DNA of 36,189 nt from Rhodothermales bacterium (lineage in GTDB: Bacteria; Bacteroidota; Rhodothermia; Rhodothermales; VXPQ01): assembly GCA_040904565.1 (NCBI GenBank), contig JBBDTI010000061.1:6188-42376 (forward strand), in the 5' to 3' direction. Made by a program: the position numbers and the translations under genes. Numbering within the stretch: position 1 is the stretch's first letter; the number at the start of each line of letters is the position of its first letter. The notes below the pieces were generated by a model that did no database searches, was not told the origin of the DNA, and saw nothing but the letters and a program-made list of their open reading frames with translations. Below, one piece after another: positions 3,923 through 20,417 of the stretch.

Positions 3923-4024
3923 GGGATCTAGTACAGGCGAATAGACGGAAGGAGAGAGCAAAATATACGGAGTAACGCGCAGTGGAGGGCTGGATGGACG
4001 TGCGGGTGGATGATGAAGAGCACG

Positions 4025-4149: not shown

Positions 4150-4629
4150 ATGAGATCTTTCATATGGTTCATACTAACCCTTCTGCTCGTCGGCCTGGCC
4201 AGCGCGCAGGCGACGGACAGCGAGAGCGCTACGATCTCGGCTGACGTCATTGCCGCGCTCAGCCTGGCCAAGAGTCAGGACCTGTCCTTCGGAGACGTGG
4301 CGCAGAATACGACCAGCACGATCGCCGTGACGGATGGCGGCGTGGTGAAGTTCACCATTACGGGTGAACCCAGCAAGAATATCACGTTTACGCTGACCGT
4401 ACCTGCCAACCTGACCGACGGGAGTGCCAATACGCTGCCGTTTACGGACGACATACAGTACAACACGGCGGATGACGCCGGTACGGCGAGCAACCTGAAC
4501 GACGGCGCGACCATCGCCATCAACGGTACGGGAAATCTGTACGTGTACCTCGGCGGAGAAGTCACGGCCGGCGGCGCACAGGTGACCGGTAGCTACACGG
4601 GTACGTACACCGTAAAGGTCGATTACTGA
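4150..4629 (+). CDS. DUF4402-like secreted pilin subunit (putative major pilin)
   Basis: SD GGGAGG; signal peptide MRSFIWFILTLLLVGLASA; DLSFGDV motif; C-terminal GSYTGTYTVKVDY strand typical of chaperone-usher pilins. Confidence 0.75.
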   Translation: MRSFIWFILTLLLVGLASAQATDSESATISADVIAALSLAKSQDLSFGDVAQNTTSTIAVTDGGVVKFTITGEPSKNITFTLTVPANLTDGSANTLPFTDDIQYNTADDAGTASNLNDGATIAINGTGNLYVYLGGEVTAGGAQVTGSYTGTYTVKVDY

Positions 4630-4680
4630 CGTGCCATGCCCCGTCGCGGACTGCATCGCCCCACCACAGCTGCACGCGTC

Positions 4681-5178
4681 ATGTCCACCCGAACCCCCCA
4701 ACACGCCCTGTACGCGCTCCTCGCCGCGGCATGCTTCGCCTCCCTCCTCACGGCGGGCGGCGTGCACGCGCAGGCATCGGTTACGGTGAACCGGCTGGCG
4801 GACATGAACTTCGGTGACGTCGCCGCGGGATCTTCTGCTTCGGTGCTTTACACCGATGCGGACGCCTCCGTCTTTCGGCTCGATTGCAGCGGCATGCTTG
4901 GATTTCAGCACGTCGATATTGCATTTACCCTGCCGACTCATCTGACGAACGGTGGCGATACCGTCGCCATTTCGTTCGGATCTACTTCCGCCGCCTGGTC
5001 CTATACCAACGATCCCGGCGGCGCTACGGCGTTCGATCCGAGCACGGGCGCGCAGGTCAACAAGGATGGCGGCTCCTTCAGCATCTACGTATGGATCGGC
5101 GCCGGCATCAGTCCCGGTGGCGCCACGCCGACGCAATCCTACTCGAACACGTTCACCCTCGACGCCGAAATACAGTAG
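4681..5178 (+). CDS. Second DUF4402-like pilin subunit (putative minor/tip subunit)
   Basis: Signal peptide ending VHA|Q; DMNFGDV, FTLPTHLT, IYVWIGAGI and QSYSNTFTL align with pilin 1; start could alternatively be 4636. Confidence 0.7.
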   Translation: MSTRTPQHALYALLAAACFASLLTAGGVHAQASVTVNRLADMNFGDVAAGSSASVLYTDADASVFRLDCSGMLGFQHVDIAFTLPTHLTNGGDTVAISFGSTSAAWSYTNDPGGATAFDPSTGAQVNKDGGSFSIYVWIGAGISPGGATPTQSYSNTFTLDAEIQ

Positions 5179-5182
5179 TATC

Positions 5183-6040
5183 ATGCCAGAGCTTCGATAT
5201 CACCGCTATACATACCTCGGTATCCTGCTGCTGCTCGCCGCCGTCCCGGCGTTTGGGCAGGTCACGCTCGCACCCACGTTCGTGTACGTGGACGAGCCGG
5301 CCCGCTACGGAACCGTTCAACTCACGAACGCAAGCGATCAGGTGCAGGAGGTCTTCATCGACTTCGAGTTCGGCTACCCCACGGCCGACGAGAGCGGTCA
5401 GCGCTATCTCGAGTACGACGACGCGGATACGGAAGCCGACCATTCGCTCTCTCCGTGGATTCGGAGTTTCCCCGAACGGTTTCGCATCCCCCCGAAACAC
5501 CGGCGCACGATCCGCCTGATGATCGACGCCCCGGAAGACCTCTCAGGCGACATGTACTGGACGCGCATGGTCGTGACGTCCCGGGAAGAGGTCCCGCCCG
5601 GCAGCGAAAAAGGGCCGGCACAGATTCATTTCGAATTTAAGCAGGTGATTCCCGTCGTCTTCGAACGCGGCAGCGCGTCGACGGACGTGGCGATCACCGA
5701 TCTATTCGTGGATGCCCAGCCTCGACACGTCACGCTCGTCGCCGCCGTCGACCGCACGGGCGAGGCTCCCTTCTTCGGCAGCATCGATCTGTCGTTGATG
5801 AATGAGGAGGGCACGGAGGTCGCGCGGAGGTCAACGACGACGGAGGCCTATTACGCCGCGAGCACCTATTTCACCATCGACCGCGAGGCACTCCCGGCGG
5901 GTCGTTACCTGGCGGACGTGACGCTGCGCGCCGAACGAAACGACGTGCGCAAGGGAGACGTGCCGGCTATGCGGCCCGTAACCCGGCGATTCGTCGTCCA
6001 CGTGCCGGAGCCCGTACCGCTGTCGACCCGATCACGATAA
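5183..6040 (+). CDS. Periplasmic fimbrial chaperone-like protein (PapD/EcpB-like two-Ig-domain)
   Basis: Signal peptide then QVTLAPTFVYVD..GTVQLTNAS; WIRSFPERFRIPPKHRRTIRL matches the chaperone P..F.I.P...Q.IRL pattern; lies between pilins and usher. Confidence 0.75.
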   Translation: MPELRYHRYTYLGILLLLAAVPAFGQVTLAPTFVYVDEPARYGTVQLTNASDQVQEVFIDFEFGYPTADESGQRYLEYDDADTEADHSLSPWIRSFPERFRIPPKHRRTIRLMIDAPEDLSGDMYWTRMVVTSREEVPPGSEKGPAQIHFEFKQVIPVVFERGSASTDVAITDLFVDAQPRHVTLVAAVDRTGEAPFFGSIDLSLMNEEGTEVARRSTTTEAYYAASTYFTIDREALPAGRYLADVTLRAERNDVRKGDVPAMRPVTRRFVVHVPEPVPLSTRSR

Positions 6041-6059: not shown

Positions 6060-9000
6060 TTGAACCGACCGGCGCCACATGGCATACCGATTGGACTCGG
6101 CCCAGCGCCGATCGTCCTCTTGCTGCTTGCCTCCGTTCTCGCAGGGACGCCGCCGTCGTATGCCCAGGACGTCGAATCGCCTCTGGCTTATGTGGCGGGT
6201 GACGACGGTGCGCGACGGGACGACGACAGCGAAGAGCCGGCCCAGGAGATCATCCTTTCTTTTCGGTATGGCGACCTGGTGACGGCCGACGTGTCGGCGC
6301 GCTTTCTGGGGTCTGACGTCTACGTGCCCGTAGGCGGACTCTTCTCGCTGCTCGGCGTCGCCTGGCAGCTCGATCGGGACGCCCCGGCAATCTCCGGCTT
6401 TTACCTGGACGAAACGCGTTCCTACCGCCTCGACTTCGGCAGCGGTACCGCCCACATCGGATCGTCGACCGTGCCCATGTTATCGGACGACTATATCGAA
6501 CGCGAGCACGATGTCTTCGTGAAGCCGTACCTTCTCGACGACGTCTTCGGTCTCCGCGTCGAGTTCGACCTGGCTGCCCTCTCGATTCACGTGCGAAGCG
6601 ACGAGCCGCTGCCCGTGGAGATGAACCGGCGACGCGCCCGACAGCGGCCCGCCGAAATCGATCCGTTCGCGGCCTTCCGCCACGCCCCACTGGCCTTTCA
6701 GCGAACGCGCAAGTCCATCGGCGGCGGTGTCGCCGATTATAACGTGTCGATCAACAAGACACACGATCGAACGCGTGTGAACCTGCAGACCGCGCTCGGC
6801 GCCGAAGTGTTGGGTGGAGACCTCGCCTGGCAGGGACGAGCGGGGGTAGGGAGTACGGCGTTCGTTGCCCACGATTACGTACGATGGCGCTACGTCATGG
6901 ACGATACGCCGCTGCTGCGGCAGGTCCGACTCGGCACCCTCCACGCCACGGGCCTCCGTCCGGATGCCTACCGGGGGATCCACCTCACCAATCAACCCGC
7001 GCGTCCGGAACGCCTCTTCGGGGAGTACACGATTTCGGGCCAGGCCGAGCCGGACTGGGAGCTCGAGCTTTATATGGACGATCGCCTGATCGACGTGACG
7101 CGCGCGCCGGCCTCCGGCGTGTATCGCTTTCAGGTCCCGGTGACGTACGGTTCGTCGCAGTTCCACGTGCAGGCTTACGGTCCGGCAGGCGAAGTGCGCC
7201 ACCTCCGTCGGCGCATCCAGGTCCCCTTCTCGATGGTGAGCCCGGGCGACCTGCGCTACAACGTCCACGTCGGCGAACGCCGTGAACGGTCCGGCTTCCT
7301 GGGGCAGGCAGACGTCGGCTACGGCGTCAGCAAACACCTGACAACCCGTCTGGGCTTCGACTACGCGGACGGCGCCCCCGGCCGTCGCCCGACGGTCTAT
7401 GGATCGGTCACCTCGCGCCTGCTCCACCACTACCTGGCCACGATGGACGTATCCGACCGCGGACTGCAGCGGTTCTCGATCCACGCGTTCTACCCATCGC
7501 AGTCCTCCCTGGAAGTACAGTACATCCGCAGCGATCCGTCTACCCGCCACCGCCTTTCCGGTCGTCGCAGCCATACCTCCGCATCGGGATTCCTGCCTTT
7601 CCACGTCGGCCGCTTCCCGATGAGCGTTCGCCTCTCCGCGTCACGATCGCAGTACGGAGGCGACCAACAGTACCGGTTTCGATCCCACCTGCAGGCCGCT
7701 TTCAACAGCCTCCAGCTCTACGTAACGGCGGAGACGGACGTTACGGAGTCCTATCGCTCCTCGACGATCCGGCCCGCCATGTCGTTCGTCTTGTCCAGGC
7801 CCCCACCGTCGATGGCGTACTTTCGCGGGTTGCTGCTCAGCGCTCGCGCGCGCTATAACGCTTCCGACCACCGGTTGGACGGCATCGAACTGAATGCCGC
7901 TCACAGCGTGACGCCCGATACCCGCGTTCAGCTCTTTACGCATCTCGGGATGTCGGGACGAGCCAGCTCGGTCGGAATTCGGCTTTCCACCGCGCTGCCG
8001 TTCGCTCGAAGCGTCACGGACACCCGGGTGACCTCGTCATCGACGAACGTCGTCCAGTCGGTCCGGGGAAGTCTCATCTTCGACAAACGAAGCGGCCGCA
8101 TCCTGGCCGGCGACCGGCCGGCAGTCGGGCGAGCGGCCGCGGCGCTGCGCCTCTTCGTAGATCGCAACGCCAACGGCACACTCGACGCGGACGAGCACGT
8201 GTTGGAACACAATGCCGTACACCTGGACCGGGGCAGCGCGCTTTCATCCGGCCATCAGGACGGGGTGACGCACGTCGGTGACCTTCTTCCCTACGAACGA
8301 TACACCGCCCGCATCGAGGAAGGGGCCATTGCAAATCCCCTCTGGGTGCCCGACCGATCGAGCTTCTCGTTCATCGCCGACCCGAACGGCGTCAAGCAGA
8401 TCGACGTGCCGCTCTTTGCCGCCGGCGTCGTAGAAGGTACGGTCGTGGACGCTCGAACGGGCGAACCGCTTGCCGTCTCCGGACTTCTCGTACGCATCGT
8501 AGACGTCGACGAAGGATCGGAGCGCGTCCTGCAGACGTTTTCTGACGGTTCGTTTTATGAGATGGGATTCCGGCCGGGTACCTACGAGGTGCAGCTGGAC
8601 GCCGACCAGCTCCACGCACGCGACCTGTCCGCCGCCGCAGCATCCGAACGGTTCGTGGTCCGAGCCACGGAAAACGGGGACTTTGTGGACGACCTCCGCC
8701 TCGCCGTCGTGGAACGACCCGCTGCGCCCGAGCGCCTGCTCGCCGGCGAATCCGACGCTTCAGATTCATCGGACACGTCGGATGCTCCGGAGAAGGATGG
8801 ACCGGAGAAGCTTGCGCCATCGACCGCCACACCGCTCGCCGAAACGACATCCGTACAACCTCCGCGACCTGCCATCCCGATTCCGACGGACCGTCCGCTG
8901 CCCGAACACGGAGCGATCGCGTGGCCTACGCCTTTCGCGATCGAAGCGGTCCACGCAGACGATTCGGTCGCAGCGCGCAATTCGGCCCGCCCTCCGCGCC

Positions 9001-9290
9001 CGCCGTTGTCGTTGCCGGACGTCTCACGACTTCCCACCGCGGTGTTTGCGCCCGGTCCAGCCCTGGCACTGGAGGCGTCGCCAACGGAGCTCGCGCGGAC
9101 GCCCGCCCTGGCACTGGAACCTCCGGCAGCGGAGCTCGGGCGGACGCCGCCCATGGAACCGCTCCTCCGCATTGGGACCGAAGCCTCCGCTCCCTCCCCG
9201 CGCCTCCCCGCCATGATCCTCTGGATCTGCACGGCCATGCTGCTCTCGCTCGGCTTGCATGTGACGCGCAGGAGAAGAATGGTTGTTTAG
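6060..9290 (+). CDS. Fimbrial usher-like outer membrane protein with C-terminal Ig-like domains, Pro-rich linker and hydrophobic tail
   Basis: Signal peptide; plug-like segment ISGQAEPDWELELYMDDRLID..GVYRFQVPVTYGSS; long amphipathic beta-strand region; FVDRNANGTLDADE and GSFYEMGFRPGTYEV Ig-like domains; TTG start. Confidence 0.75.
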   Translation: MNRPAPHGIPIGLGPAPIVLLLLASVLAGTPPSYAQDVESPLAYVAGDDGARRDDDSEEPAQEIILSFRYGDLVTADVSARFLGSDVYVPVGGLFSLLGVAWQLDRDAPAISGFYLDETRSYRLDFGSGTAHIGSSTVPMLSDDYIEREHDVFVKPYLLDDVFGLRVEFDLAALSIHVRSDEPLPVEMNRRRARQRPAEIDPFAAFRHAPLAFQRTRKSIGGGVADYNVSINKTHDRTRVNLQTALGAEVLGGDLAWQGRAGVGSTAFVAHDYVRWRYVMDDTPLLRQVRLGTLHATGLRPDAYRGIHLTNQPARPERLFGEYTISGQAEPDWELELYMDDRLIDVTRAPASGVYRFQVPVTYGSSQFHVQAYGPAGEVRHLRRRIQVPFSMVSPGDLRYNVHVGERRERSGFLGQADVGYGVSKHLTTRLGFDYADGAPGRRPTVYGSVTSRLLHHYLATMDVSDRGLQRFSIHAFYPSQSSLEVQYIRSDPSTRHRLSGRRSHTSASGFLPFHVGRFPMSVRLSASRSQYGGDQQYRFRSHLQAAFNSLQLYVTAETDVTESYRSSTIRPAMSFVLSRPPPSMAYFRGLLLSARARYNASDHRLDGIELNAAHSVTPDTRVQLFTHLGMSGRASSVGIRLSTALPFARSVTDTRVTSSSTNVVQSVRGSLIFDKRSGRILAGDRPAVGRAAAALRLFVDRNANGTLDADEHVLEHNAVHLDRGSALSSGHQDGVTHVGDLLPYERYTARIEEGAIANPLWVPDRSSFSFIADPNGVKQIDVPLFAAGVVEGTVVDARTGEPLAVSGLLVRIVDVDEGSERVLQTFSDGSFYEMGFRPGTYEVQLDADQLHARDLSAAAASERFVVRATENGDFVDDLRLAVVERPAAPERLLAGESDASDSSDTSDAPEKDGPEKLAPSTATPLAETTSVQPPRPAIPIPTDRPLPEHGAIAWPTPFAIEAVHADDSVAARNSARPPRPPLSLPDVSRLPTAVFAPGPALALEASPTELARTPALALEPPAAELGRTPPMEPLLRIGTEASAPSPRLPAMILWICTAMLLSLGLHVTRRRRMVV
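9060..9149 (+). repeat. 45-bp imperfect in-frame tandem duplication in usher linker
   Basis: Encodes ALALEASPTELARTP / ALALEPPAAELGRTP. Confidence 0.8.
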
Positions 9291-10654
9291 AATACGCGGG
9301 TGAGTCCGTATACCGCGACCAGGATGATCGAAACGATGCTGATCCACAATACGACGTCGTACAGGCGTCCGGGCCGCAGCTCGTCCGGAGCCCGGCGATA
9401 TCGAAAGTGAATGACGGCGAACACGACGATGAGCAGGATGACCGTCGTCGCCACACCGCCGATGGCCACCATGATGGCCGGCGTCTGCATCCACAGGAAC
9501 AGCGACGCCCAGATGAGCGGGATCGACCACGCCAGCCAGGCGATGGCCTTTCGTCGCTGCTCGACGTCCTTAAAATCCATCCATCCGATCTGACCGAATG
9601 CGTCGGAAAACAGGCGTGTCCAGATGGCCAGGGCGCCGAAGAGGGTTGAAAATAGCACCGCGAACGCACCGGCGAGAAAGATGGTGCCCGCCCACTCGCC
9701 CAGACTTCTCGTGTAGAGCTGTGAGAGCGTTTCCACGAGCTGCATGCCTTCGGGAAGGATGCCCTGGCGATGCAGGATGGTCGCACCTAGCAGGTAGAAG
9801 GCGGCCGTCATGAGCGTGTAGACGATCATCGCGGCCACCGCATCCATATACATCACCCGCATCCATCCCTTCGCGCGCCGCTGCCAGGCTTCGGTGCGCT
9901 CGTAGGGGCCGGTATAGGCCGCGTAGCCCTTCTCGATGAGCCAGTAGTTGTAGGCCATGATTTCGTCGCCGCCCACGCCGGTGATGCCGAACGCTCCGAT
10001 GGCGACGAGGACGACTTCCGGAGGGAGGTTGAACGTGAGGCCGCTAATCAGCTCCGCACTGGAGAAGGCGAAGTCCGTGTACTGCACGGCGACGACCGAG
10101 ACGATCGTCAGCACCGTAAAGAGTCCGATCAAGACGAGCGAGAGCTTCTCGATCGGCGCATATTTACCCTGGTAGATGATGAGCGAAACCGCGATGGCCG
10201 TGAGGTAGCACCAGACGGCCACGTGTACCTGCGGGAAGACGATCGTCAGCACGAGCGCCGTACCGCCGATAACCCCGCCGACCTGCATCATCTTGAAGGT
10301 CATGAGGCCGAGCCACGTCCAGATCGTCCAGTTCGCCTTTCCGAACTTCGGCCCGGGAAGGCCATTGAGTCCCTCCATGGTCGTCTCGCCGGAGTAGATG
10401 GCCTGGCGCCCGAATTCGACCTGCACGGCAACCTTGACGAGGCAGCTGACGAGGATCACCCAGAAGGTGACGAATCCGGCCTCGGCACCCAGCCTCGTGG
10501 TGGCGATCAGCTCGCCCGACCCGACGATGGACGCGGAAAGGATGAATCCGGGCCCCAGAAAGCGCAGCCGGTCGCGAAAGCTCCCCGGCGGCTCGCGCAC
10601 CTTCTCTGCCGTCAGATCGTAGGGATTGTCCTTGAGAACGGGGAGCGTGGGCAT
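9287..10654 (-). CDS. Nramp-like (APC superfamily) transporter with GSGE instead of DPGN
   Basis: LGPGFILSASIVGSGELI, FGITGVGGDE, roughly 11 hydrophobic segments; alternative start 10699. Confidence 0.82.
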   Translation of the reverse strand: MPTLPVLKDNPYDLTAEKVREPPGSFRDRLRFLGPGFILSASIVGSGELIATTRLGAEAGFVTFWVILVSCLVKVAVQVEFGRQAIYSGETTMEGLNGLPGPKFGKANWTIWTWLGLMTFKMMQVGGVIGGTALVLTIVFPQVHVAVWCYLTAIAVSLIIYQGKYAPIEKLSLVLIGLFTVLTIVSVVAVQYTDFAFSSAELISGLTFNLPPEVVLVAIGAFGITGVGGDEIMAYNYWLIEKGYAAYTGPYERTEAWQRRAKGWMRVMYMDAVAAMIVYTLMTAAFYLLGATILHRQGILPEGMQLVETLSQLYTRSLGEWAGTIFLAGAFAVLFSTLFGALAIWTRLFSDAFGQIGWMDFKDVEQRRKAIAWLAWSIPLIWASLFLWMQTPAIMVAIGGVATTVILLIVVFAVIHFRYRRAPDELRPGRLYDVVLWISIVSIILVAVYGLTRVF

Positions 10655-10714
10655 GGGGATACCACGTACGCGGGCTGTGGAAGCTGGCGCGGGCTGCATG
10701 TGGGAAGGATTCGA

Positions 10715-13465
10715 TTAACGGCCGAGCGAGAGGAGGTTGGCGAAGATCCGATAGGCGCCCGGCACTCCGTAAGGAAGTTGCCGGTGCACGGCATAGGCAA
10801 AGTACGTATACGTTCCCGCACCGTAATCGGCGATCAGCCAGCCACCTTGCTGCGGATCCTGGCCCAGGTCCTGCGTTTCGATCAGCGGAGTGTATGCGTC
10901 ATCCCATTCCGAAAAAAACTTGGAGCCCCGCTGCTCGATCCACCCGTCAAAGTCCGCCGCCGCGATCTCGTTCGGCTGGTTGAAAACAGGGTGTTCTGGA
11001 GCGAGAATGCGCACGGGGGCGTCCTCCTCGGACACTTCCTCCGCCGAACGCGGCAGTTCAGCCGGGAAGGCCGCCGCATCGTTCGGCACGAATTCGGGCG
11101 TCTGATACAGGACGATCAGGTGGCCCCCGTTACGGGCATAGTCGAGCAGGCGCTGGTTGTACGTCCACAGATCCTGGCGGACGGCATACGCCCGCGTGCC
11201 GACGACGATGACGTCGTACCCTGACAGGTCGGCACCCGCAAGTTCGGCCGTACCAAAGAGGTCGACACGCGCGCCCAGCCGCCGGATACCGGATGGCACC
11301 TCGTCGCCCACACCCATCACGTAACCCACCGTCAGGTCGGGTGCGATCTGCACGTCAACGCCGCGAACCTGCGTTTCAGCCGGCCGGAAAATATACTGCG
11401 TGTCGATGTCGAGCTGCGTGATGACCTCGTATCCCGTTCGATACTCTTCACCGTCCACCATCGCCACGGCCTCTACGAGGTAGTCCCGATCCTCCATGGT
11501 CGGGATCTCCACCTGCACGGCGAAGGTCCGCCGCTGTCCGGCATCCGTAAATGAGAACTCGTTTCGAGCCGGATCGGCGCGCCAACCCGCGGGAAGGTCC
11601 ACACGCAGCACGCCCTCTGCCCCGGAGGGCCGGTTGTTGACGAGTTCGACGTCCAGGTCGAACACGCGCCGGTCGCCGCCCAGCGGAACGATCCGCATCT
11701 CCGGACGCATGTTGACGGCAATCACCGGCGCAATCTTCAAGGCACGCATCTCGTAGCCGTACGGAAAATTCGCCTCGCGGCGCCGTACCGTCGAGACGAG
11801 ACCAACCGGCACGTCGTAGACCGTGTACGTGGCCGTAGCGGTTAGGAGAGGCGGACGATGGGGACGGTGCCGGTAGGAAGCGTAGCGTATGTCGTATCTA
11901 CTGTCTCGGATCGATTCACGGTAATAGTAGCGATGGGATACGCCGGCATCGGCCGGTACGGTCATCTCCATCGCCAGATCCACGTGCTCGTTCTCGCTCA
12001 GCGTCCGATCTACAGGAATGCTTGCGACGTATGAATCCGAATTAACCATGTCGGAAAAATCGGTCCACTGCGACGACGCATCCAGCCGCATTCCCCGCAC
12101 GTGGATCGCATCTCCACCTGCGTTGACAAGCCTCGATTGGACCCGAACGTCCTGACCGGGCACGGCAATCCCCATCGTCGCCCGCGACCCCCACGGACTG
12201 TCCGAGTCCACCGTACCGGGCGGCACGGCGACGGCCTCAAGACGAACGCCCAGCGCCGTGTTGATGGCATGCTCGAACTGCCGCTCTTTGATCTGCAAAT
12301 ACATATGGGCATCCGAGCCGTATTCGAACGCATCCATCGCGCGGCGCAACTTCTCCAGGCCCAGCGCGAGCGATGCCGCCATCGTAGCCGTTCGCTCGAC
12401 GTTGAAGCTCGCCACGGCATCGTCGACGTGGCCCATCACGGCTTCAAGAAGAGCGTGCGTTTCCGCCGAAACGTCTACGTCGAAAAGAGCCGGGAGACCG
12501 CGCAGTGACGTGTCGATCCCGTCGAAGAGGCTCGATTCCTGATCGGGGCTCTCTACGACGGCATCCATGCGTTCGTAATACCGAACGTAGGGACCGACCG
12601 ACTCGCGATAGGCACCGCTCGTCTGCGAACGCTGGTACTGCAGCCCCTCGGAGGCCACGTTCCGATACGAGGCTCCAAGGCTCGAGCTGTACGTTCCCGC
12701 GTCGATGCGGACGTTCCAGTGTTCGTCCTCGCGCACTCCGCCCCGGTATAGCTTGAGGGGCTGCCAGGGTTGCAGGCCTTCCTCGCTGATCTGCTCCGGG
12801 AAACGGTTCGGGTCCGCCGCCGCACGAAATGCTTCCTGCGCCATCACGCCGGCCGTTTCGTGGTGGCCGTGCCCATCCCGCTCCGTCCCATGAAACCGTG
12901 CGAGCACGACCAGAGGGCGGTTAAGCCGAATGACGCGAACGACGTCGCGAAGCACGTTTTCACGCCCCCAGTTTCGCAGCGCCTCGTCGAGCACCTTCGA
13001 GAATCCGTAGTCGATTGCGGTCGTAAAATAGAGATCGTCGAGTCCATAATAGGCTCCGGACAGAAGCAACTCCTCGGTCCGTACGAGCCCGAGCTCGTCG
13101 AACAGCTCCGATCCGACCGCGTTGGCACCGCCTTCACCTCTGGTAAGCGAAAGGAGCGCGACCCGGGCCCCTTCCCCCCGGCTGAGGTATGTGAGGACCC
13201 CGCCGTGTTCGTCATCCGGATGGGCTACGACGTGCAGCACGCTCGCCGTCGTACGGAGCTTTTGCAGATCCTGCCACAGGCCCGTGCCCCCGCGATCGAT
13301 CTGCAGCTCGTCAAGGCTCCGATCGGCATCCGTTAGCATCATGACCCGATCCAGGCCCTCGGCGGATTGCGCGAACGCCGGCCGCGAAGGAAGTGCGAGC
13401 GCCGACGTGAGGAAAACAACCGTCAATACGACGGATGTACGCAATTGGAGTAGACGAAAATTCAT
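10715..13465 (-). CDS. Secreted PIG-L/LmbE family deacetylase with NEW3-like Ig domain and C-terminal GATase-like domain
   Basis: AHPDDE, LTRGEGG, RTEEL, DYGFSK and HGHH motifs; signal peptide from ATG 13465; C-terminal GYVMGVGDEVP...RQLPYGVPGAYRIFANL. Confidence 0.88.
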   Translation of the reverse strand: MNFRLLQLRTSVVLTVVFLTSALALPSRPAFAQSAEGLDRVMMLTDADRSLDELQIDRGGTGLWQDLQKLRTTASVLHVVAHPDDEHGGVLTYLSRGEGARVALLSLTRGEGGANAVGSELFDELGLVRTEELLLSGAYYGLDDLYFTTAIDYGFSKVLDEALRNWGRENVLRDVVRVIRLNRPLVVLARFHGTERDGHGHHETAGVMAQEAFRAAADPNRFPEQISEEGLQPWQPLKLYRGGVREDEHWNVRIDAGTYSSSLGASYRNVASEGLQYQRSQTSGAYRESVGPYVRYYERMDAVVESPDQESSLFDGIDTSLRGLPALFDVDVSAETHALLEAVMGHVDDAVASFNVERTATMAASLALGLEKLRRAMDAFEYGSDAHMYLQIKERQFEHAINTALGVRLEAVAVPPGTVDSDSPWGSRATMGIAVPGQDVRVQSRLVNAGGDAIHVRGMRLDASSQWTDFSDMVNSDSYVASIPVDRTLSENEHVDLAMEMTVPADAGVSHRYYYRESIRDSRYDIRYASYRHRPHRPPLLTATATYTVYDVPVGLVSTVRRREANFPYGYEMRALKIAPVIAVNMRPEMRIVPLGGDRRVFDLDVELVNNRPSGAEGVLRVDLPAGWRADPARNEFSFTDAGQRRTFAVQVEIPTMEDRDYLVEAVAMVDGEEYRTGYEVITQLDIDTQYIFRPAETQVRGVDVQIAPDLTVGYVMGVGDEVPSGIRRLGARVDLFGTAELAGADLSGYDVIVVGTRAYAVRQDLWTYNQRLLDYARNGGHLIVLYQTPEFVPNDAAAFPAELPRSAEEVSEEDAPVRILAPEHPVFNQPNEIAAADFDGWIEQRGSKFFSEWDDAYTPLIETQDLGQDPQQGGWLIADYGAGTYTYFAYAVHRQLPYGVPGAYRIFANLLSLGR

Positions 13466-13544
13466 GTCACCACCTACCACGGGTAGTTGTCGATGATTGC
13501 AAGAGTTCAAGCGCGGGCGGACGTCTCGAGGCACTAAAGCGCCC

Positions 13545-15590
13545 TCAGCGCGCTACCGTGGGGATAAGACCGACGCGGAGCGTCGTCGCCCCATACGGCA
13601 GAAGCGTAATCTCCTCGAGCGGCTCGTCGGTCTGCGCCGGACTGTAAGGAAGCGGACCGGCCGATCCGTTATACTCGCCCCACGACGGAATGCGCCGTCC
13701 CATGGCACGAAGCCGGACGGGTACGTCGGACTCGGTCCACGGATAGGCAGTGGACGCGGAGCGATGGACCTCGAAGGATGCAGCCGGGTTTTCATCGTCA
13801 AGCGCCAGTCCGAAATTCCATGCCCCTTGCGGATGAACCTCCCATCCCGTCTCGCCCCGCATCTCGGGATTCGGCAGCCGCACCTGGTGCTCCCGGCCCG
13901 GAACGGCGAGCGCGAAAACGAGTGGTCCGCGGTGGACGGACACGGCCCGCTCGCGGCCGCGCTGCACGTCGACCTGCGCCGGCAGCTCGAGCGTCACGAC
14001 ATCCCCGTCGCTCCACGTCCGCGCCACCTGAACGATCTGTCCGGCTTCCGGCGTATCCCACGTCTCGCCGTTGACGACGATGCGTGCATCCCGCGTCCAT
14101 CTTGGAATACGCAGGTGGAACGGGAACGCAACCGGTTCGTCCACCTCGATCGTGAAACGAACCGTATCCTCGAACGGGTAGCTCGTCTCTTCGCGCACGT
14201 GCACCTCGTTTTCCTCTCCGACGAAGGCCGTCACGGCACTCGGACCGTATGCGAGCGCCGCGAGACCTCCATCTCTGCTCGCCATCCAGAGGTGCTGCAC
14301 GTACTTGGGCCACCCCTGATGGAGATTTGTCGTGCAGCACGGATAGCCTGTGAGGAGCCCGAAGCAGATGTCGGTTCCGTCGTGCGGCGTGATGAAATTG
14401 CGCGTTCCGAGACTGATTCGAACCTGATTCGCCTGCTGAAAGTACTGGCGCGCCGAGAAATCGTCGTTGATGTGCGTGGGCAGGGCGTTGTACGCGACGC
14501 GCTCCAGCCGGTCCACCCAGGCCACGTCGCCCGTGATCTTCGCCAGCCGCTCGAGACTGTACATGAACTCGACGACGGCGCAGAGCTCCGTACCGTGCGT
14601 CGGGTCGGTGCCGTGGAGCTCCTCATCGCCGGAGAAAAGCCCGTGCACCTGCCCGTGCCGTTCCATAATCGCCTCCATGCCGCGATGCACGGCGTCCAGG
14701 TAGCGCTGCTCGCCCGTCTGGAGATACTGCAGCGCCGGCTGCTTGACGGCCATGGCCACATTGACGACGTGGGTGTACCAGTAATCGTCGTTAGACTTTC
14801 CGGAAAGGAAATCGCTCGTCCAGTCCTGCGTCTGCTCGAAGACGAGGTCGGCCAGTTCGAGCAAGAAAGCGTCCCCGGTGCGATTGTAGAGCCAGTAGAT
14901 ACTTTCCTGATTTTCGCCGCCTCGAGCCGTCGCCCAGTTCGTCCACGTGTCGAGCGGCGTCTCCGGCAGCGTTTCGAGCTGATACCGGAAATACCGCGTC
15001 ATCAGCTCGATCACGCGCTCGTCCCCGGTAGCCTCATAATGCGAACGGAGCACCTTCAGCATGACCATCCGCGGCCACCAGTCGGCAGGAGCCATCTGCT
15101 GCACCCTCGAGCCTCCCTCGGCACTGGCATCCTCCGGGGCCGGACCAAAAAATCCGTCCGCGCGCTGGCTGGACAGGGTCCATTCGATGTAAGGACGGGC
15201 CTTCTCGACGAGCGTTTCATCGCCGAGAATATGGGCGAGCGGTACGAGTCCGTCGAGCCAGTACGGCCCCCGCTCCCAGTTGTCACCGTCGCCTCCGCGC
15301 CATCCGTTGGATTCGCCGACCAGCGGATATAACTCGTCGAGATGACCGGTCATCCCGCCTGCCGCCCGTTCGAGCTGCTCGCGCAGCCAGCCCCGCGGCT
15401 GAACGTCGCCCAACGGCAGCGTGGTATACGGCGTTTCGGCAAGCGGCGGCCGAGTAAACACGTAGCCGCGATCCGTGGTGTCAATCGGTGAGAAAAGATG
15501 CGCCTGCGAACGCTCGAAATCTTCCCCAACGTCCGCGGACCAGATCGAGGTCAGCAGCAGAAGCCCTATATGTGCTAACGTCACCATCAC
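13545..15590 (-). CDS. Glycoside hydrolase family 127 (beta-L-arabinofuranosidase/aceric acidase-like)
   Basis: WERGPYWLDG, HVVN, FSGDEE, GTELCAVVE, LERVAYNALP, YPCCTTNLHQGWPK (Zn-Cys cluster); N-terminal signal sequence; SD GAGGAGG. Confidence 0.88.
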   Translation of the reverse strand: MMVTLAHIGLLLLTSIWSADVGEDFERSQAHLFSPIDTTDRGYVFTRPPLAETPYTTLPLGDVQPRGWLREQLERAAGGMTGHLDELYPLVGESNGWRGGDGDNWERGPYWLDGLVPLAHILGDETLVEKARPYIEWTLSSQRADGFFGPAPEDASAEGGSRVQQMAPADWWPRMVMLKVLRSHYEATGDERVIELMTRYFRYQLETLPETPLDTWTNWATARGGENQESIYWLYNRTGDAFLLELADLVFEQTQDWTSDFLSGKSNDDYWYTHVVNVAMAVKQPALQYLQTGEQRYLDAVHRGMEAIMERHGQVHGLFSGDEELHGTDPTHGTELCAVVEFMYSLERLAKITGDVAWVDRLERVAYNALPTHINDDFSARQYFQQANQVRISLGTRNFITPHDGTDICFGLLTGYPCCTTNLHQGWPKYVQHLWMASRDGGLAALAYGPSAVTAFVGEENEVHVREETSYPFEDTVRFTIEVDEPVAFPFHLRIPRWTRDARIVVNGETWDTPEAGQIVQVARTWSDGDVVTLELPAQVDVQRGRERAVSVHRGPLVFALAVPGREHQVRLPNPEMRGETGWEVHPQGAWNFGLALDDENPAASFEVHRSASTAYPWTESDVPVRLRAMGRRIPSWGEYNGSAGPLPYSPAQTDEPLEEITLLPYGATTLRVGLIPTVAR

Positions 15591-16575: not shown

Positions 16576-18432
16576 ATGCGCCGTGCAGCCCACCTGCCCA
16601 AATCCGTGAAGCCTACCGTTACGCGCACCGCCGTCTGCCTGCTCCTGGCCGCGCTCCTGACCGGCTGCGGAAGCACCCGCTCCATCAGCGATTCGGCGGC
16701 GGCCCTCGAGCCTCTCGAATACGTCGTCGACCTCAACGACTTGTCAGGCGACTCATTTAAAGTCACCCTCGCGGTTGACGATCTCGATGCATCCAATGCC
16801 GTCTACCAGTTCGCCGCCACGGCACCGGGAACGTACCAGGTGATGGACATCGGGCGCTACGTTCGAAGCTTCGAAGCCGTCGACGCGGACGGAAACGTAA
16901 TTCCATCCGAGCGCATTTCGACGAACCAGTGGCGCATCGGGGACCCCGAATCCGTCGCCCAGATCCGGTACGCCGTGGCCGAGACGTGGGATACACCGGT
17001 CGACGAGCACCCGATCTACCGCATGGCGGGCACGTCGCTCGAAGAGGACCACGCCCTGTTCAACAACCAGGCCGTATTCGGCTTTCCGGCCGGCATGCAG
17101 CAGCGGCCCGTCCGCATCCGCCTCGACCAGCCCGAGCCGTGGGTCGCCGGCACGGCGCTGGAAACGGACGACACGGGATATTACCTGGCGGAAGATTATG
17201 ACCACCTCGTCGATTCGCCGATACTGACCGGTCGCCTGAGCGTGGCCTCAACGGAGGTGAGTGGCGGCGACGTCGGCATCTACACCTATTCAGCAACCGA
17301 TCGGGTAGAATCGGACGAGATCCTGGAGTCGGTACACTCCATTCTGACCGCAGCCGGTACGTACCTGGGTGAGCTGCCCGTCGACCGGTACACGTTTCTC
17401 TTCCATTTCGAAGATCAGAACGTGGGTGCGCTCGAGCATTCCTACAGCTCTACGTATGCGCTGGCCGAGAACACATTCGATCAGATGATCGATGCAGCGA
17501 TACCGGACATCGTCGCCCATGAGTTCCTGCACGTGGTTACCCCGCTCAACATCCACAGCGAGGTCATCGAGCAGTTCAATTTCGTGGAGCCGACCCCTTC
17601 GGAGCACGTCTGGCTGTACGAGGGCGTGACCGAGTGGATGTCGCACGCATCGCAGCTGCGAGCCGGGTTGATCGACGAATCGGAGTACCTGGACCGCATG
17701 TCGGGCAAGCTGCGCAACAACGACCAGTACGACCCCGACTTCAGCCTGAGCGACATCGGCCTCCACTCATTCTCGGAGAAAGGCCAGCAGGAGTGGGGCA
17801 ACATCTACCAGCGTGGAGCCGTCGTGGCGGAGCTGCTTAACATCCGGCTGCTCGCGCTGTCGGACGGCCGCCGTGGACTTCGGGAGGTCGTCCTCGAGCT
17901 GTCGGAGGAATACGGCCCAAACAGACCGTTCGACGAAAGGACCTTCTTCGATGCGTTCACGGCGATGACGTATCCTGAAATTGGCCCCTTCCTCGACGCC
18001 TACGTGCGCGGCACGCAGGAGCTGCCCGTCGAGGAGACGTTCGGCTTGATCGGCGTCGACTACGTGGCCGAGGAGAACACGGGGGAGACGGTCGTTCTGC
18101 TCGGGGTGCGGTTCGGCGTGGATGGCGATCGGCTCGTGCTGGCGAGCGTAGAGGGCGCGGCAGCGGAATGCGGCTTTCAGCAGGGCGACGTACTCGTATC
18201 GTTCGACGATGAGACCGTCACGGTGCGAAACGCGCAGCAGGTTATAGGTGGTCTTCAGGCGATGGGTCCCGACGAACCATTCACCATGACCGTTCTCGGC
18301 GATGACGGAGAACAGACGATTCCGTGTGCGAAACAGGAAATCGACCGCATCGAACGTCACGTCCTGCGCATCGACCCGGACGCACCGGATGAGGCTGAGG
18401 CGCTGCGCTGGGCGTGGTCGAGCCGGCTGTAA
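16576..18432 (+). CDS. M61 family glycyl aminopeptidase-like lipoprotein with PDZ domain
   Basis: Lipobox LLTGC; PGTY, DHLVDSPI, GALEH, AHEFLH (HExxH), WLYEGVTEW, YQRG; C-terminal PDZ-like GFQQGDVLVSFD. Confidence 0.88.
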   Translation: MRRAAHLPKSVKPTVTRTAVCLLLAALLTGCGSTRSISDSAAALEPLEYVVDLNDLSGDSFKVTLAVDDLDASNAVYQFAATAPGTYQVMDIGRYVRSFEAVDADGNVIPSERISTNQWRIGDPESVAQIRYAVAETWDTPVDEHPIYRMAGTSLEEDHALFNNQAVFGFPAGMQQRPVRIRLDQPEPWVAGTALETDDTGYYLAEDYDHLVDSPILTGRLSVASTEVSGGDVGIYTYSATDRVESDEILESVHSILTAAGTYLGELPVDRYTFLFHFEDQNVGALEHSYSSTYALAENTFDQMIDAAIPDIVAHEFLHVVTPLNIHSEVIEQFNFVEPTPSEHVWLYEGVTEWMSHASQLRAGLIDESEYLDRMSGKLRNNDQYDPDFSLSDIGLHSFSEKGQQEWGNIYQRGAVVAELLNIRLLALSDGRRGLREVVLELSEEYGPNRPFDERTFFDAFTAMTYPEIGPFLDAYVRGTQELPVEETFGLIGVDYVAEENTGETVVLLGVRFGVDGDRLVLASVEGAAAECGFQQGDVLVSFDDETVTVRNAQQVIGGLQAMGPDEPFTMTVLGDDGEQTIPCAKQEIDRIERHVLRIDPDAPDEAEALRWAWSSRL

Positions 18433-18531: not shown

Positions 18532-19752
18532 ATGCCCAGATTTTTCAGCCTCCTGATCGTACTGCTGGTTGCGGCGTCACCGCTGCAGGCGCAGCGAATC
18601 ACCGAACTCGACGCGTTGATGCACGGCGAGATCGAGGCGGGACACATCCCCGGTGCCGTTCTCCAGATCGTTCAGGGAGATGGGGTGCTCCACCAGGCCG
18701 CATACGGCTACGCCCAGCGTTACGGGTACGGGATGCAGCCGCTCGATCCGCCCGATACGATGACGACGGATCACCTCTTCGACCTGGCATCGCTCACGAA
18801 GGTGCTCGGGACCACGTTCGGCGTCATGCTGCTCGTGGATCGCGGTTTGATCGACCTGGATGCGCCCGTCCGCACGTACCTGCCGGAGTTCGCAGGCGGA
18901 AAGAAATCCGCCGTCACCGTGCGCCACCTCCTCACGCATACGGCCGGACTCGCACAGTGGCTGCCCCTTTATTACCACGCATCGACGAAAACCGAGACGT
19001 ACGAAACGATCGCCCGGCTTCCCCTCTCCTTCGACGTCGGCAAGGAACGCCGGTACAGCGACCTCGGCTTTATGCTGCTGGGCTGTCTCGTCGAACGGGT
19101 GACCGATAGGCCCCTCGACCGCTTCCTCCACGACGAGCTATTCGGGCCGCTCGGCCTCGAGAGAACCACCTTTACGCCGCTGGCGCACGGCGTCGAGGCA
19201 GCTGCCATCGCCGCGACATCGCACGGCAACCCTTTCGAGCGCCGGATGGTCTACGACGACGACTTCGGCTATCAGGTCGACGTGGATCCGGCGTCTTGGG
19301 ATGCATGGCGTGAATACACGCTGCGCGGCGAGGTAAACGACGGCAACGCGTACCATGCGAACGAGGGAGTGGCCGGACACGCAGGCCTCTTTTCTACCGT
19401 CGACGACGTACGGACGCTACTCGATCTGCTCCTCCATAAAGGGCGACACGGCGACGAGCAGATCCTGAGCCGCGACGTTGTCCACACCTTCTTTCGTCGG
19501 GATCACACCGGCAACGGACTTGGATGGATGATGGACCCCGCTATCATTCCCGCGGTCGGCACCCCGGACGGCACATTCGGACATACGGGTTTTACGGGCA
19601 CGTACGTGGCGGTCATCCCCGAACTCGACGTCACCATCATCCTGCTCACGAACCGGCAAAATGTGGGGACGCAAGGCGACGGTACGTATCATAACCTGAA
19701 TCCGACGAGGCAGCGCGTGGTAGACGTGGTGCTCGAGCTGGCGACAAAATGA
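18532..19752 (+). CDS. Secreted serine hydrolase, beta-lactamase class C fold (AmiE/YbbE-like)
   Basis: FDLASLTK (SxxK), LLTHTAG, YSDLGF, GEVNDGNA, GVAGHAGLFST, FGHTGFTG; signal peptide. Confidence 0.87.
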   Translation: MPRFFSLLIVLLVAASPLQAQRITELDALMHGEIEAGHIPGAVLQIVQGDGVLHQAAYGYAQRYGYGMQPLDPPDTMTTDHLFDLASLTKVLGTTFGVMLLVDRGLIDLDAPVRTYLPEFAGGKKSAVTVRHLLTHTAGLAQWLPLYYHASTKTETYETIARLPLSFDVGKERRYSDLGFMLLGCLVERVTDRPLDRFLHDELFGPLGLERTTFTPLAHGVEAAAIAATSHGNPFERRMVYDDDFGYQVDVDPASWDAWREYTLRGEVNDGNAYHANEGVAGHAGLFSTVDDVRTLLDLLLHKGRHGDEQILSRDVVHTFFRRDHTGNGLGWMMDPAIIPAVGTPDGTFGHTGFTGTYVAVIPELDVTIILLTNRQNVGTQGDGTYHNLNPTRQRVVDVVLELATK

Positions 19753-20417
19753 CGCCCTCGCCGCTGGCGGGATCGACTGCACTCATCCTTCCATTCAACC
19801 TATCTGACGACGCAGCTGCTTTGACGCCGATCGCACCCGTCATCCCGCTGCTTCTTGCACTGGCCCTTTCGGACGGGCGGGAGCTGGACGACGTTGAACT
19901 GGCCCGTCGAATACGCGGGGGCGACAGGGTGGCGTTTCGTGCGTTTTTCGAACGCTATCACGGGATCCTCTACGGCTACCTCCGCCGGCGCGGCGTCGGT
20001 CCGGCCGTCTGCGAAGACCTGGCGCAGCAAGCCTTCGTAAAGATCTGGGAACGGCGCGAAGACATCCAGCCGGGGAAATCGCTGCGCGCATTTCTGTTCA
20101 AGATCAGCTACAATCGGGCACTCAATCATTTCAGGGATACGGCCAAGTTTACCGATGACGCGAAACTGCACGAACGTTCTTCAGGCGCCGACCCCGAGGC
20201 ACGCGCGGAGTATGCGCTCATGCAGGAACATCTCTACAAGACCGTCGAGGAGCTGCCCGAGCGGCGGCGTGCCGTATTCGAACTCTGCTTTCTCGAGGAT
20301 CTAACGTATCGCGAGGCGGCCGAGGCGCTCGACATCAGCGTAAAAACGGTCGAAAACCAGATGAGCTCCGCCCTGAAAGTGCTGCGAGCGGCCTTCGAGC
20401 ATTTCAATGACCCGTAG
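19749..20417 (+). CDS. ECF RNA polymerase sigma-70 factor (FecI-like)
   Basis: Region 2 EDLAQQAFVKIW..FLFKISYNRALN; region 4 LPERRRAVFEL..LTYREAAEALDISVKTVENQM; start uncertain (19749 or TTG 19821). Confidence 0.92.
   Translation: MTPSPLAGSTALILPFNLSDDAAALTPIAPVIPLLLALALSDGRELDDVELARRIRGGDRVAFRAFFERYHGILYGYLRRRGVGPAVCEDLAQQAFVKIWERREDIQPGKSLRAFLFKISYNRALNHFRDTAKFTDDAKLHERSSGADPEARAEYALMQEHLYKTVEELPERRRAVFELCFLEDLTYREAAEALDISVKTVENQMSSALKVLRAAFEHFNDP

Follow-up and report, generated by a model that had tools for sequence, protein, structure and literature searches.

Introduction

Chaperone-usher pili are the textbook example of an assembly machine that operates at the outer membrane and is linked to neither the cell wall nor the inner membrane; until now, the process has been viewed as independent of energy and as restricted to the outer membrane. 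To our knowledge, classical ushers carry no anchor after the second of their C-terminal domains (CTD2). Here we analysed a stretch of 36,189 nucleotides, called the window below, from contig JBBDTI010000061.1 of a Rhodothermales bacterium (assembly GCA_040904565.1), in which the gene at 6060..9290 on the forward strand encodes an usher-like protein that continues, after its last folded domain, into a long Pro/Ala-rich tail ending in a hydrophobic segment and four arginines. We suggest, with a probability of about one half, that this tail may be a tether to the inner membrane used in place of a cell-wall anchor, a reading drawn from one lineage, from hydropathy and from few strain variants. The best explanation of the protein as a whole is that it is the assembly pore of a divergent chaperone-usher-like pilus system, of the type found in the Fibrobacterota-Chlorobiota-Bacteroidota (FCB) group with DUF4402-type subunits.

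Results

Fold and Domain Order of the Usher-like Protein

The usher-like gene is the last of a four-gene cluster, behind two pilin-like genes and a chaperone candidate, and its open reading frame (ORF) of 1076 aa opens with a TTG start codon. The first 35 residues (6060..6164, +) form a predicted signal peptide, with an uncharged run at residues 8–35 and a Kyte-Doolittle mean over 19 residues (KD-19) that peaks at 2.21; cleavage probably occurs after SYA. An AlphaFold2 (AF2) model, built on seven relatives, was ordered from residue 61 to residue 888, mostly with a predicted local distance difference test score (pLDDT) of 70–95. The usher core (6240..8714, +) comprises, in this order, an N-terminal domain (residues ~61–180), a barrel with plug (~220–685) and two beta-sandwiches (~690–885) at the end of the ordered part, so that the barrel and plug, the N-terminal periplasmic domain and the two C-terminal beta-sandwiches expected of the fold of an outer-membrane usher were all found. 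When the model was used as a query in Foldseek, the best matches were FimD (3rfz_E, E 7.7e-29) and PapC (7lhg_C, E 5.7e-24); the FimD/PapC matches ranged from E 7.7e-29 to 1e-15, with a probability of 1.0, about 900 aligned columns and 12–14% identity, and the top 17 matches listed were full-length FimD/PapC chains and isolated translocation pores.

At the level of family profiles the protein gave no match to PF00577 (Pfam, E ≤ 0.1) and, on the core, none to NCBIfam; its sole notable Pfam domain was CarboxypepD_reg at residues 791–855 (E 5.8e-7, sub-threshold). PF00577 was matched at E ≤ 0.001 by 10 of the 83 relatives scanned, three of which (P0010, P0020 and P0047) exceeded the cut-off of 27.1 bits. 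The probable identity as an usher is thus taken from the modelled fold and from the relatives that match PF00577, and not from a Pfam match of the protein itself; the label "usher" of the initial annotation is correct as far as fold and context are concerned, despite the failed test of Pfam membership. The N-terminal periplasmic domain (residues 61–180, 6240..6599) was without a match to the classical usher N-terminal domain. It weakly resembled Cu_amine_oxidN1 (PF07833, E 0.017), a likeness that was clearer in six of the scanned relatives (E 5e-5 to 9e-4, threshold E ≤ 0.001).

A Disordered Linker, a Hydrophobic Segment and a Basic Stub

The tail spans 190 aa (8718..9287) and is dominated by a few residue types (33 Pro, 31 Ala, 22 Leu, 15 Arg, 15 Ser and 14 Thr). 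In the AF2 model residues 889–1076 had a pLDDT below 35, and only one short helix, at residues 1052–1062, was built. Most of the tail is a disordered linker of 162 aa (residues 887–1048; 8718..9203, +; pLDDT 22–32) with 20% Pro, 18% Ala and a net charge of −9, which contains an in-frame tandem duplication of 45 nt (15 aa) in 2.1 copies (9060..9152, +; Tandem Repeats Finder, 83% matches, score 128). The protein ends in LPAMILWICTAMLLSLGLHVT, followed by RRRR, MVV and the stop codon. KD-19 means of at least 1.6 were reached in two segments only, the signal peptide and residues 1048–1069 (1.86), and we assigned a putative stop-transfer helix of 21 residues to positions 1049–1069 (9204..9266, +), predicted from hydropathy only and overlapping the short AF2 helix. 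The RRRR-MVV stub (9267..9290, +; RRRR at 9267..9278, stop at 9288..9290) is predicted to be cytoplasmic. The layout may be that of a type I (stop-transfer) anchor, for which a helix of about 20 residues would be expected: there is a signal-peptide-like N-terminus, a segment that reaches its KD-19 value of 1.86 at residues 1051–1069 around an uncharged core of only 18 residues, and RRRR immediately after it. The arrangement described in the initial annotation, a Pro/Ala-rich low-complexity stretch followed by a hydrophobic segment, RRRR, MVV and stop, was therefore confirmed at its position, with a linker of 162 residues.

Searches for close relatives of the tail were fruitless. Residues 887–1076 gave no Pfam or NCBIfam domain at E ≤ 1 other than NCBIfam MamX (E 0.69), which we took as a chance match, and no similar sequence was found elsewhere in the genome beyond compositional matches to the linker and tail. 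Two word-index protein searches returned only 7–8 proteins; a metagenome scan with the protein gave 337 pattern matches, none of which was confirmed, a degenerate DNA pattern of the helix in which either Cys or Phe was permitted gave none, and the ESM Atlas held no usable match to residues 1020–1076. The S-x3-H spacing in the helix (S1062, H1067 region) was considered as a TonB/TolA transmembrane (TM) motif and dropped, as the helix runs in the opposite polarity and such a spacing often arises by chance.

The C-terminus of the Family Is a Slot for Envelope Anchoring

A profile search of 1.84 billion representative sequences retrieved 8969 relatives at E ≤ 0.001, of which 3032 also passed E ≤ 1e-30, with profile E values down to 1e-296; the best 150 of the 8969 were inspected, i.e., 149 relatives and the protein of the window. 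The relatives come from Bacteroidota, Balneolales, Rhodothermales, Ignavibacteriota, Kryptoniota and Gemmatimonadota. More than 30 aa beyond the core were present in 84 of the 150, the window's own protein included. In the other 83, Pfam recognised SPOR in 42, OmpA in 6 and LysM in 5, which corresponds to 52 distinct proteins; five carried tetratricopeptide repeats (TPR) only, and nothing was recognised in 26. Because 52 of the 83 extended relatives carry peptidoglycan-binding domains, the C-terminus of this family is a periplasmic, modular slot for envelope anchoring. Two statements of the initial annotation meet here: its premise that ushers end in two C-terminal domains without an anchor fails for the FCB-group family, and its idea that relatives could have the tail swapped for peptidoglycan-binding domains describes what these sequences contain. 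The usher of the window has no recognisable binding domain after its last beta-sandwich and falls outside the peptidoglycan-anchored subgroup. Some tails in the family are 550–630 residues long.

The same genome, a metagenome-assembled genome (MAG) of 95 contigs with a completeness of 94.9%, contains a paralogous pilus locus (L013, contig C72, 2147..9091). It encodes a pair of DUF4402 subunits, a 311-aa protein in which a CBM_5_12 domain and a poly-Asp/Glu stretch occur, a candidate chaperone and an usher, the last of which is broken by one in-frame TGA (L013 7322..7324). This usher has an acidic Pro-rich linker, and its C-terminus gave LysM matches, to Kbp/YgaU at E 0.0022 and to TsaP at E 0.026, with no Pfam call on this LysM-like end. 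At the other extremity of the protein, five relatives (P0083, P0136, P0141, P0111 and P0157) have 200–680 additional N-terminal residues with fn3 or Ig-like matches. A chaperone-usher fusion was tried as an explanation on P0083 alone and rejected, since hhalign against the chaperone alignment gave a probability of 0.2. Two contigs with members of the usher family (L022 and L059) are filed under a "Candidatus Methanofastidiosia archaeon" MAG, as a 3.8-kb contig, and a "Limnohabitans" MAG; these taxon labels are probably binning errors.

The Tail in Other Samples and Strains

The region was followed in four public sequencing runs, X1 to X4. X1 and X2 may be the source samples, which limits their independence; X3 is a further sample from that study, and X4 belongs to a different one. 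Record 1 of X1 was identical across 7900..9700, records of X2 (7900..8693, 8664..9506 and 9477..9700) tiled the same interval without differences, and the pieces recovered from X3 (8517..8754, 8757..8907 and 9277..9700) were identical as well. Because the contigs of three samples are identical, the tail is not an assembly error.

Diverged variants were found in X4 and X2. They carry an in-frame insertion of 3 nt at 8721–8723 and diverge completely past 8745, into a low-complexity sequence rich in Thr, Ser and Ala which, by hand translation, lies in the usher frame. The X4 variant contigs cover 8390..8745 and 8964..9265, the latter with 19 differences and no gap, and the variant record 12 of X2 covers 9179..9506 with 37 differences and no gap, spanning the overlap of the usher stop with that of the convergent gene. 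Of the 19 differences in the X4 tail contig, three were listed: the one at 9197 is synonymous, and those at 9229–9230, GC to TT, change Cys1057 to Phe (codons read by hand), likewise a hydrophobic residue. The variant strains thus keep the frame and the helix. The linker itself is hypervariable among strains between 8721 and 9179.

Is the Tail Coding Sequence?

In the last 230 nt, the GC content at third codon positions (GC3) was 0.80–0.83 as compared to 0.41–0.60 at first positions (GC1), a clear codon periodicity; in the helix segment the values were 0.83 and 0.41, respectively. The usher frame of the tail reads as protein-like (8% Arg, 4% Gly), whereas the other two forward frames contain 16–25% Arg, and it was still the best or equal-best frame by codon-usage score in most tail windows. 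The period of the 45-nt repeat is a multiple of three. A hidden gene or domain in the other tail frames was considered and rejected, as those frames are Arg-rich nonsense. Three further frames are open across this GC-rich stretch, so that openness alone is weak evidence of coding. Instead, the ending itself is informative: a hydrophobic 17-mer followed by at least three Arg or Lys closes just 4 of the 8062 ORFs of the genome that look spurious (codon score below 0), and therefore a TM-plus-basic ending is more than chance. Between 8500 and 9500 Rfam gave no match at E ≤ 1, and no sites resembling terminators or promoters were found. Among RNA data sets no holder of 8300..9500 was listed, a result without bearing on expression.

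Gene Cluster and Surroundings

The first gene of the cluster (4150..4629, +; the listed ORF opens at 3982, and translation probably starts at the Met that precedes the signal peptide) encodes a DUF4402 pilin-like subunit that matches PF14352 (Pfam, E 3.2e-11, 44.4 bits against a cut-off of 25.2). It has an orthologue at the same position in the locus of G006, an uncultured Rhodothermales MAG of another genus which holds the closest available orthologue of the usher, at 41% identity. The second (4636..5178, +) encodes a small secreted pilin-like subunit, predicted from the ORF and from a syntenic orthologue at L014 10565..11086, with no family match in Pfam or NCBIfam. The third (5183..6040, +) encodes the chaperone candidate, a protein of ~285 residues with a signal peptide, two beta-sandwich domains and no C-terminal helix. 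The only Pfam indication for the latter was PapD_N at E 0.036, below the cut-off; its AF2 model had a mean pLDDT of 64 and an N-terminal domain of low confidence, and in Foldseek it gave generic tandem Ig-like folds, with no PapD or FimC among the 43 matches listed. Given the low-confidence domain and these generic matches, the protein is a candidate only and its PapD-like status unproven. It is present also in the G006 locus and in the paralogous locus of the same genome, and both keep the gene order of the cluster.

Downstream, a convergent gene (9287..10699, −), whose stop overlaps that of the usher gene by 4 nt, encodes a polytopic membrane protein of 470 aa with no Pfam match at E < 0.1, which by eye looks Nramp-transporter-like. 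It is followed by genes for a PIG-L-domain protein of 939 aa (10715..13534, −), a GH127-like hydrolase (13545..15590, −), an M61 peptidase with a PDZ domain (16576..18432, +), a serine beta-lactamase-family protein (18532..19752, +) and an extracytoplasmic function (ECF)-type sigma factor (19749..20417). PdxA and Ppx/GppA are also among the neighbours, and the genes around the cluster are unrelated to the pilus system.

Discussion

A Putative Tether to the Inner Membrane

The interpretation of the tail as an inner-membrane tether plausibly fits the logic of the family, in which the same position is used for anchoring, and of the readings considered it is the best supported. If it is correct, the N-terminal signal peptide would direct the precursor into export by Sec, the helix at the C-terminus would act as a stop-transfer anchor with RRRR kept in the cytoplasm, according to the positive-inside rule, and the barrel would be put into the outer membrane by the beta-barrel assembly machinery (BAM), as for all ushers, whose barrels precede periplasmic domains. 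The spacer of 162 residues would cross the periplasm, with a contour length of ~50 nm and a random-coil end-to-end distance of ~10 nm. The periplasm is 20–30 nm wide, and given this width the spacer would need moderate stretching. The outcome would be an usher tied to the inner membrane, not to the cell wall, and the likely purpose would be that of the cell-wall anchors, i.e., to hold the base of the pilus in place, positionally or mechanically. That the tail inserts into a membrane, with which topology and to what end, is what we infer from these features.

Several observations weigh against the tether. The uncharged hydrophobic core is just 18 residues long (1049–1066) and is followed by a His at 1067, which makes it a borderline case among bacterial inner-membrane helices. 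By codon usage the tail scores about 0 (−0.15 to 0.20), as compared to 0.2–0.56 in the core of the protein. A C-terminal hydrophobic segment was present in none of the 149 relatives and at none of 52 loci of species-representative genomes (48 complete); the two sets probably overlap, the loci having been found with a four-sequence alignment. The orthologue of G006 ends ~20 residues past the last domain, the match reaching query residue 898 and the orthologue ending 8 residues beyond the match, and therefore conservation beyond the strain level could not be shown. Moreover, a weak joint in X4 from 9036 to 9179 (side 22, depth 3.4) skips 142 nt, which is not a multiple of three and would break the frame if real. 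Finally, our literature searches turned up no earlier case of a beta-barrel protein that carries an inner-membrane helix at its C-terminus. The initial annotation had stated that the tether would fall if close orthologues stopped near 8720 and the tail were unconserved read-through or an assembly error, or if no TM helix were predicted: the closest available orthologue does stop shortly after the last domain, whereas no assembly error was found and the strain variants keep frame and helix. The tether that it proposed stands as the best supported reading, helped by the anchoring slot of the relatives and held back by a tail that, among the relatives examined, is seen in one lineage only.

Alternative Explanations

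The strongest competitor, a serious one though less probable than the tether, is that the tail is a young and largely neutral extension, generated when a stop near 8735 was lost or when an older anchoring module decayed. The tail would be translated, and its hydrophobic end, without a selected anchoring role, might be tolerated, degraded or partly inserted. Much of what was reported above would suit such an origin: the early end of the nearest orthologue, a tail that is unique among ~200 relatives, the codon score around 0, the recent 45-nt duplication, the hypervariability among strains past 8745 and the open state of three other frames. On the other hand, so few spurious ORFs finish in a hydrophobic stretch with a basic cluster, and the GC3 periodicity of the last 230 nt is so strong, that a merely accidental ending is not what would be expected. 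Moreover, the variants are gapless at 8964..9265 and 9179..9506, and the helix shows a single listed replacement, of Cys by Phe. Unless it is accommodated, a stop-transfer helix would be expected to do harm on a protein of the outer membrane, and its persistence across diverged strains in spite of this potential harm suggests that it is tolerated or useful.

The hydrophobic segment might, instead of crossing a membrane, be a periplasmic interaction element that docks on the inner leaflet of the outer membrane, on a partner or on the usher itself, in an autoinhibitory or plug-like manner. The short core of 18 uncharged residues with its His at 1067 would be in keeping with such a role, as would an AF2 helix of only 11 residues, predicted with low confidence; but the segment runs straight into four arginines, as the positive-inside rule would have it for a stop-transfer anchor, the neighbourhood shows no obvious partner gene (PdxA, Ppx/GppA, PIG-L, GH127 and the transporter-like protein without Pfam match), and a spacer of 162 residues would be needless for docking on the usher. 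This makes the docking element improbable.

The initial annotation had also offered a cleavable sorting signal of the PEP-CTERM, GlyGly-CTERM or LPXTG type, by which an enzyme would attach the usher elsewhere. In its overall layout the tail does resemble such signals, since a spacer of low complexity leads to a hydrophobic helix and basic residues cluster at the very end, but ahead of the helix, in the sequence SPRLPAM, there is no PEP, GG or LPXTG motif, LPAM standing at the helix start instead, and no CTERM-type model of NCBIfam matched the tail. Sortase (PF04203) and exosortase (PF09721) gave no matches in the genome, whose completeness was given above, and rhombosortase (TIGR03902) gave two matches only, which score 61 and 39 bits where the cut-off is 84 and are generic rhomboids; matches likewise remain below the cut-off in all 14 control genomes; the search for exosortase and rhombosortase genes indicated by the initial annotation thus returned none above cut-off. 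Among 6380 coding-like ORFs of the genome, 27 end in a TM helix plus basic residues, and the other 26 have no motif in common and resemble the final helices of membrane proteins of the polytopic type; with no comparable non-transporter tail among them, there is thus no family of sorting substrates. Since neither exosortase, sortase or rhombosortase nor a second protein with such a tail was found, a cleaved signal served by a dedicated sorting system is clearly unlikely, and the sorting alternative was not supported.

As for a frameshift, a chimeric join near 8720 or another assembly or sequencing artefact, for which one might invoke the 95 contigs of the MAG and a tail that begins exactly where the orthologue ends, it is very improbable, as contigs of X1, X2 (both perhaps source samples) and X3 cross the junction without a difference and variant contigs of X4, from another study, cover both sides of the linker (8390..8745 and 8964..9265).

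Significance of the Tether

Returning to the inner-membrane tether, a very large branch of the usher fold in the FCB group, i.e., the 8969 matches at E ≤ 0.001, appears to fix its periplasmic end routinely to peptidoglycan, and our literature searches found no paper on this peptidoglycan-anchored branch with DUF4402 subunits. Within it, one Rhodothermales lineage appears to have exchanged the peptidoglycan anchor for an inner-membrane helix on a spacer of periplasm length. If this is true, what matters would be that the pilus base is fixed to some layer of the envelope, and not to which one. If the helix inserts, the protein would be a natural beta-barrel tethered to the inner membrane, and a direct test case for the handling of such a polypeptide by Sec and BAM. 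Even as a neutral extension, the tail would be a clear example of how new C-terminal anchors may arise from low-complexity read-through.

A more speculative possibility, which we regard as quite unlikely, is that the tether couples pilus assembly to a process of the inner membrane, with the usher integrated in both membranes as a single polypeptide. By analogy, the coupling could involve the Sec exit site that delivers the subunits or a proton-motive-force or signalling partner, in a manner similar to VirB10 or TonB with reversed polarity.

Comparison with Known Systems

The protein of the window shares with FimD and PapC (PF00577) the overall fold, the solved chains being recovered over 778–806 residues, and its gene, too, follows pilin-like genes and a two-domain chaperone candidate. 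It differs in the low identity (12–14%), in the missing PF00577 match and in its subunits, which are DUF4402 and not Fimbrial. With the SPOR-, OmpA- and LysM-tailed ushers of the FCB group it has in common the core, the position of the extension after the last beta-sandwich and, presumably, a fixing role; their tails are folded and bind peptidoglycan, whereas that of the window is a disordered spacer with a helix whose target would be the inner membrane. A further analogy is offered by TsaP, which is a peptidoglycan tether at the PilQ secretin. The PEP-CTERM, GlyGly-CTERM and LPXTG signals resemble the tail in the hydrophobic helix and the basic cluster at the extreme C-terminus, and are unlike it in having a signature motif, and in the cognate enzyme and the substrate family that are lacking in this genome.

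VirB10 and TonB combine an inner-membrane helix, a Pro-rich periplasmic spacer and a contact with the outer membrane. The likeness lies in a Pro-rich spacer within a single polypeptide that is predicted to bridge both membranes; by contrast, the putative anchor of the usher is C-terminal, i.e., of reversed polarity, and its N-terminal part is a true beta-barrel. The Pfam and NCBIfam scans of the usher gave no match to the TonB or VirB10 families, and the window shows no obvious ExbBD or ATPase partner.

A C-terminal TM tether on an usher was not found described in our literature searches. The nearest described cases are pilus chaperones of monoderm and candidate phyla radiation (CPR) bacteria, for which the reports on ElrE (bioRxiv 10.64898/2026.10.17.759780) and on PamC/PamD (PMC13278184) describe a C-terminal TM tether; the ElrE paper adds that no classical chaperone belonging to the chaperone-usher pathway (CUP) carries such a helix. 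These proteins and ours have in common a component of donor-strand-exchange type pili tethered, or predicted to be tethered, via a C-terminal TM helix; with ElrE and PamC/PamD it is the chaperone that is tethered, and the cells lack a classical periplasm, whereas here it would be the usher of a diderm, held by a predicted helix.

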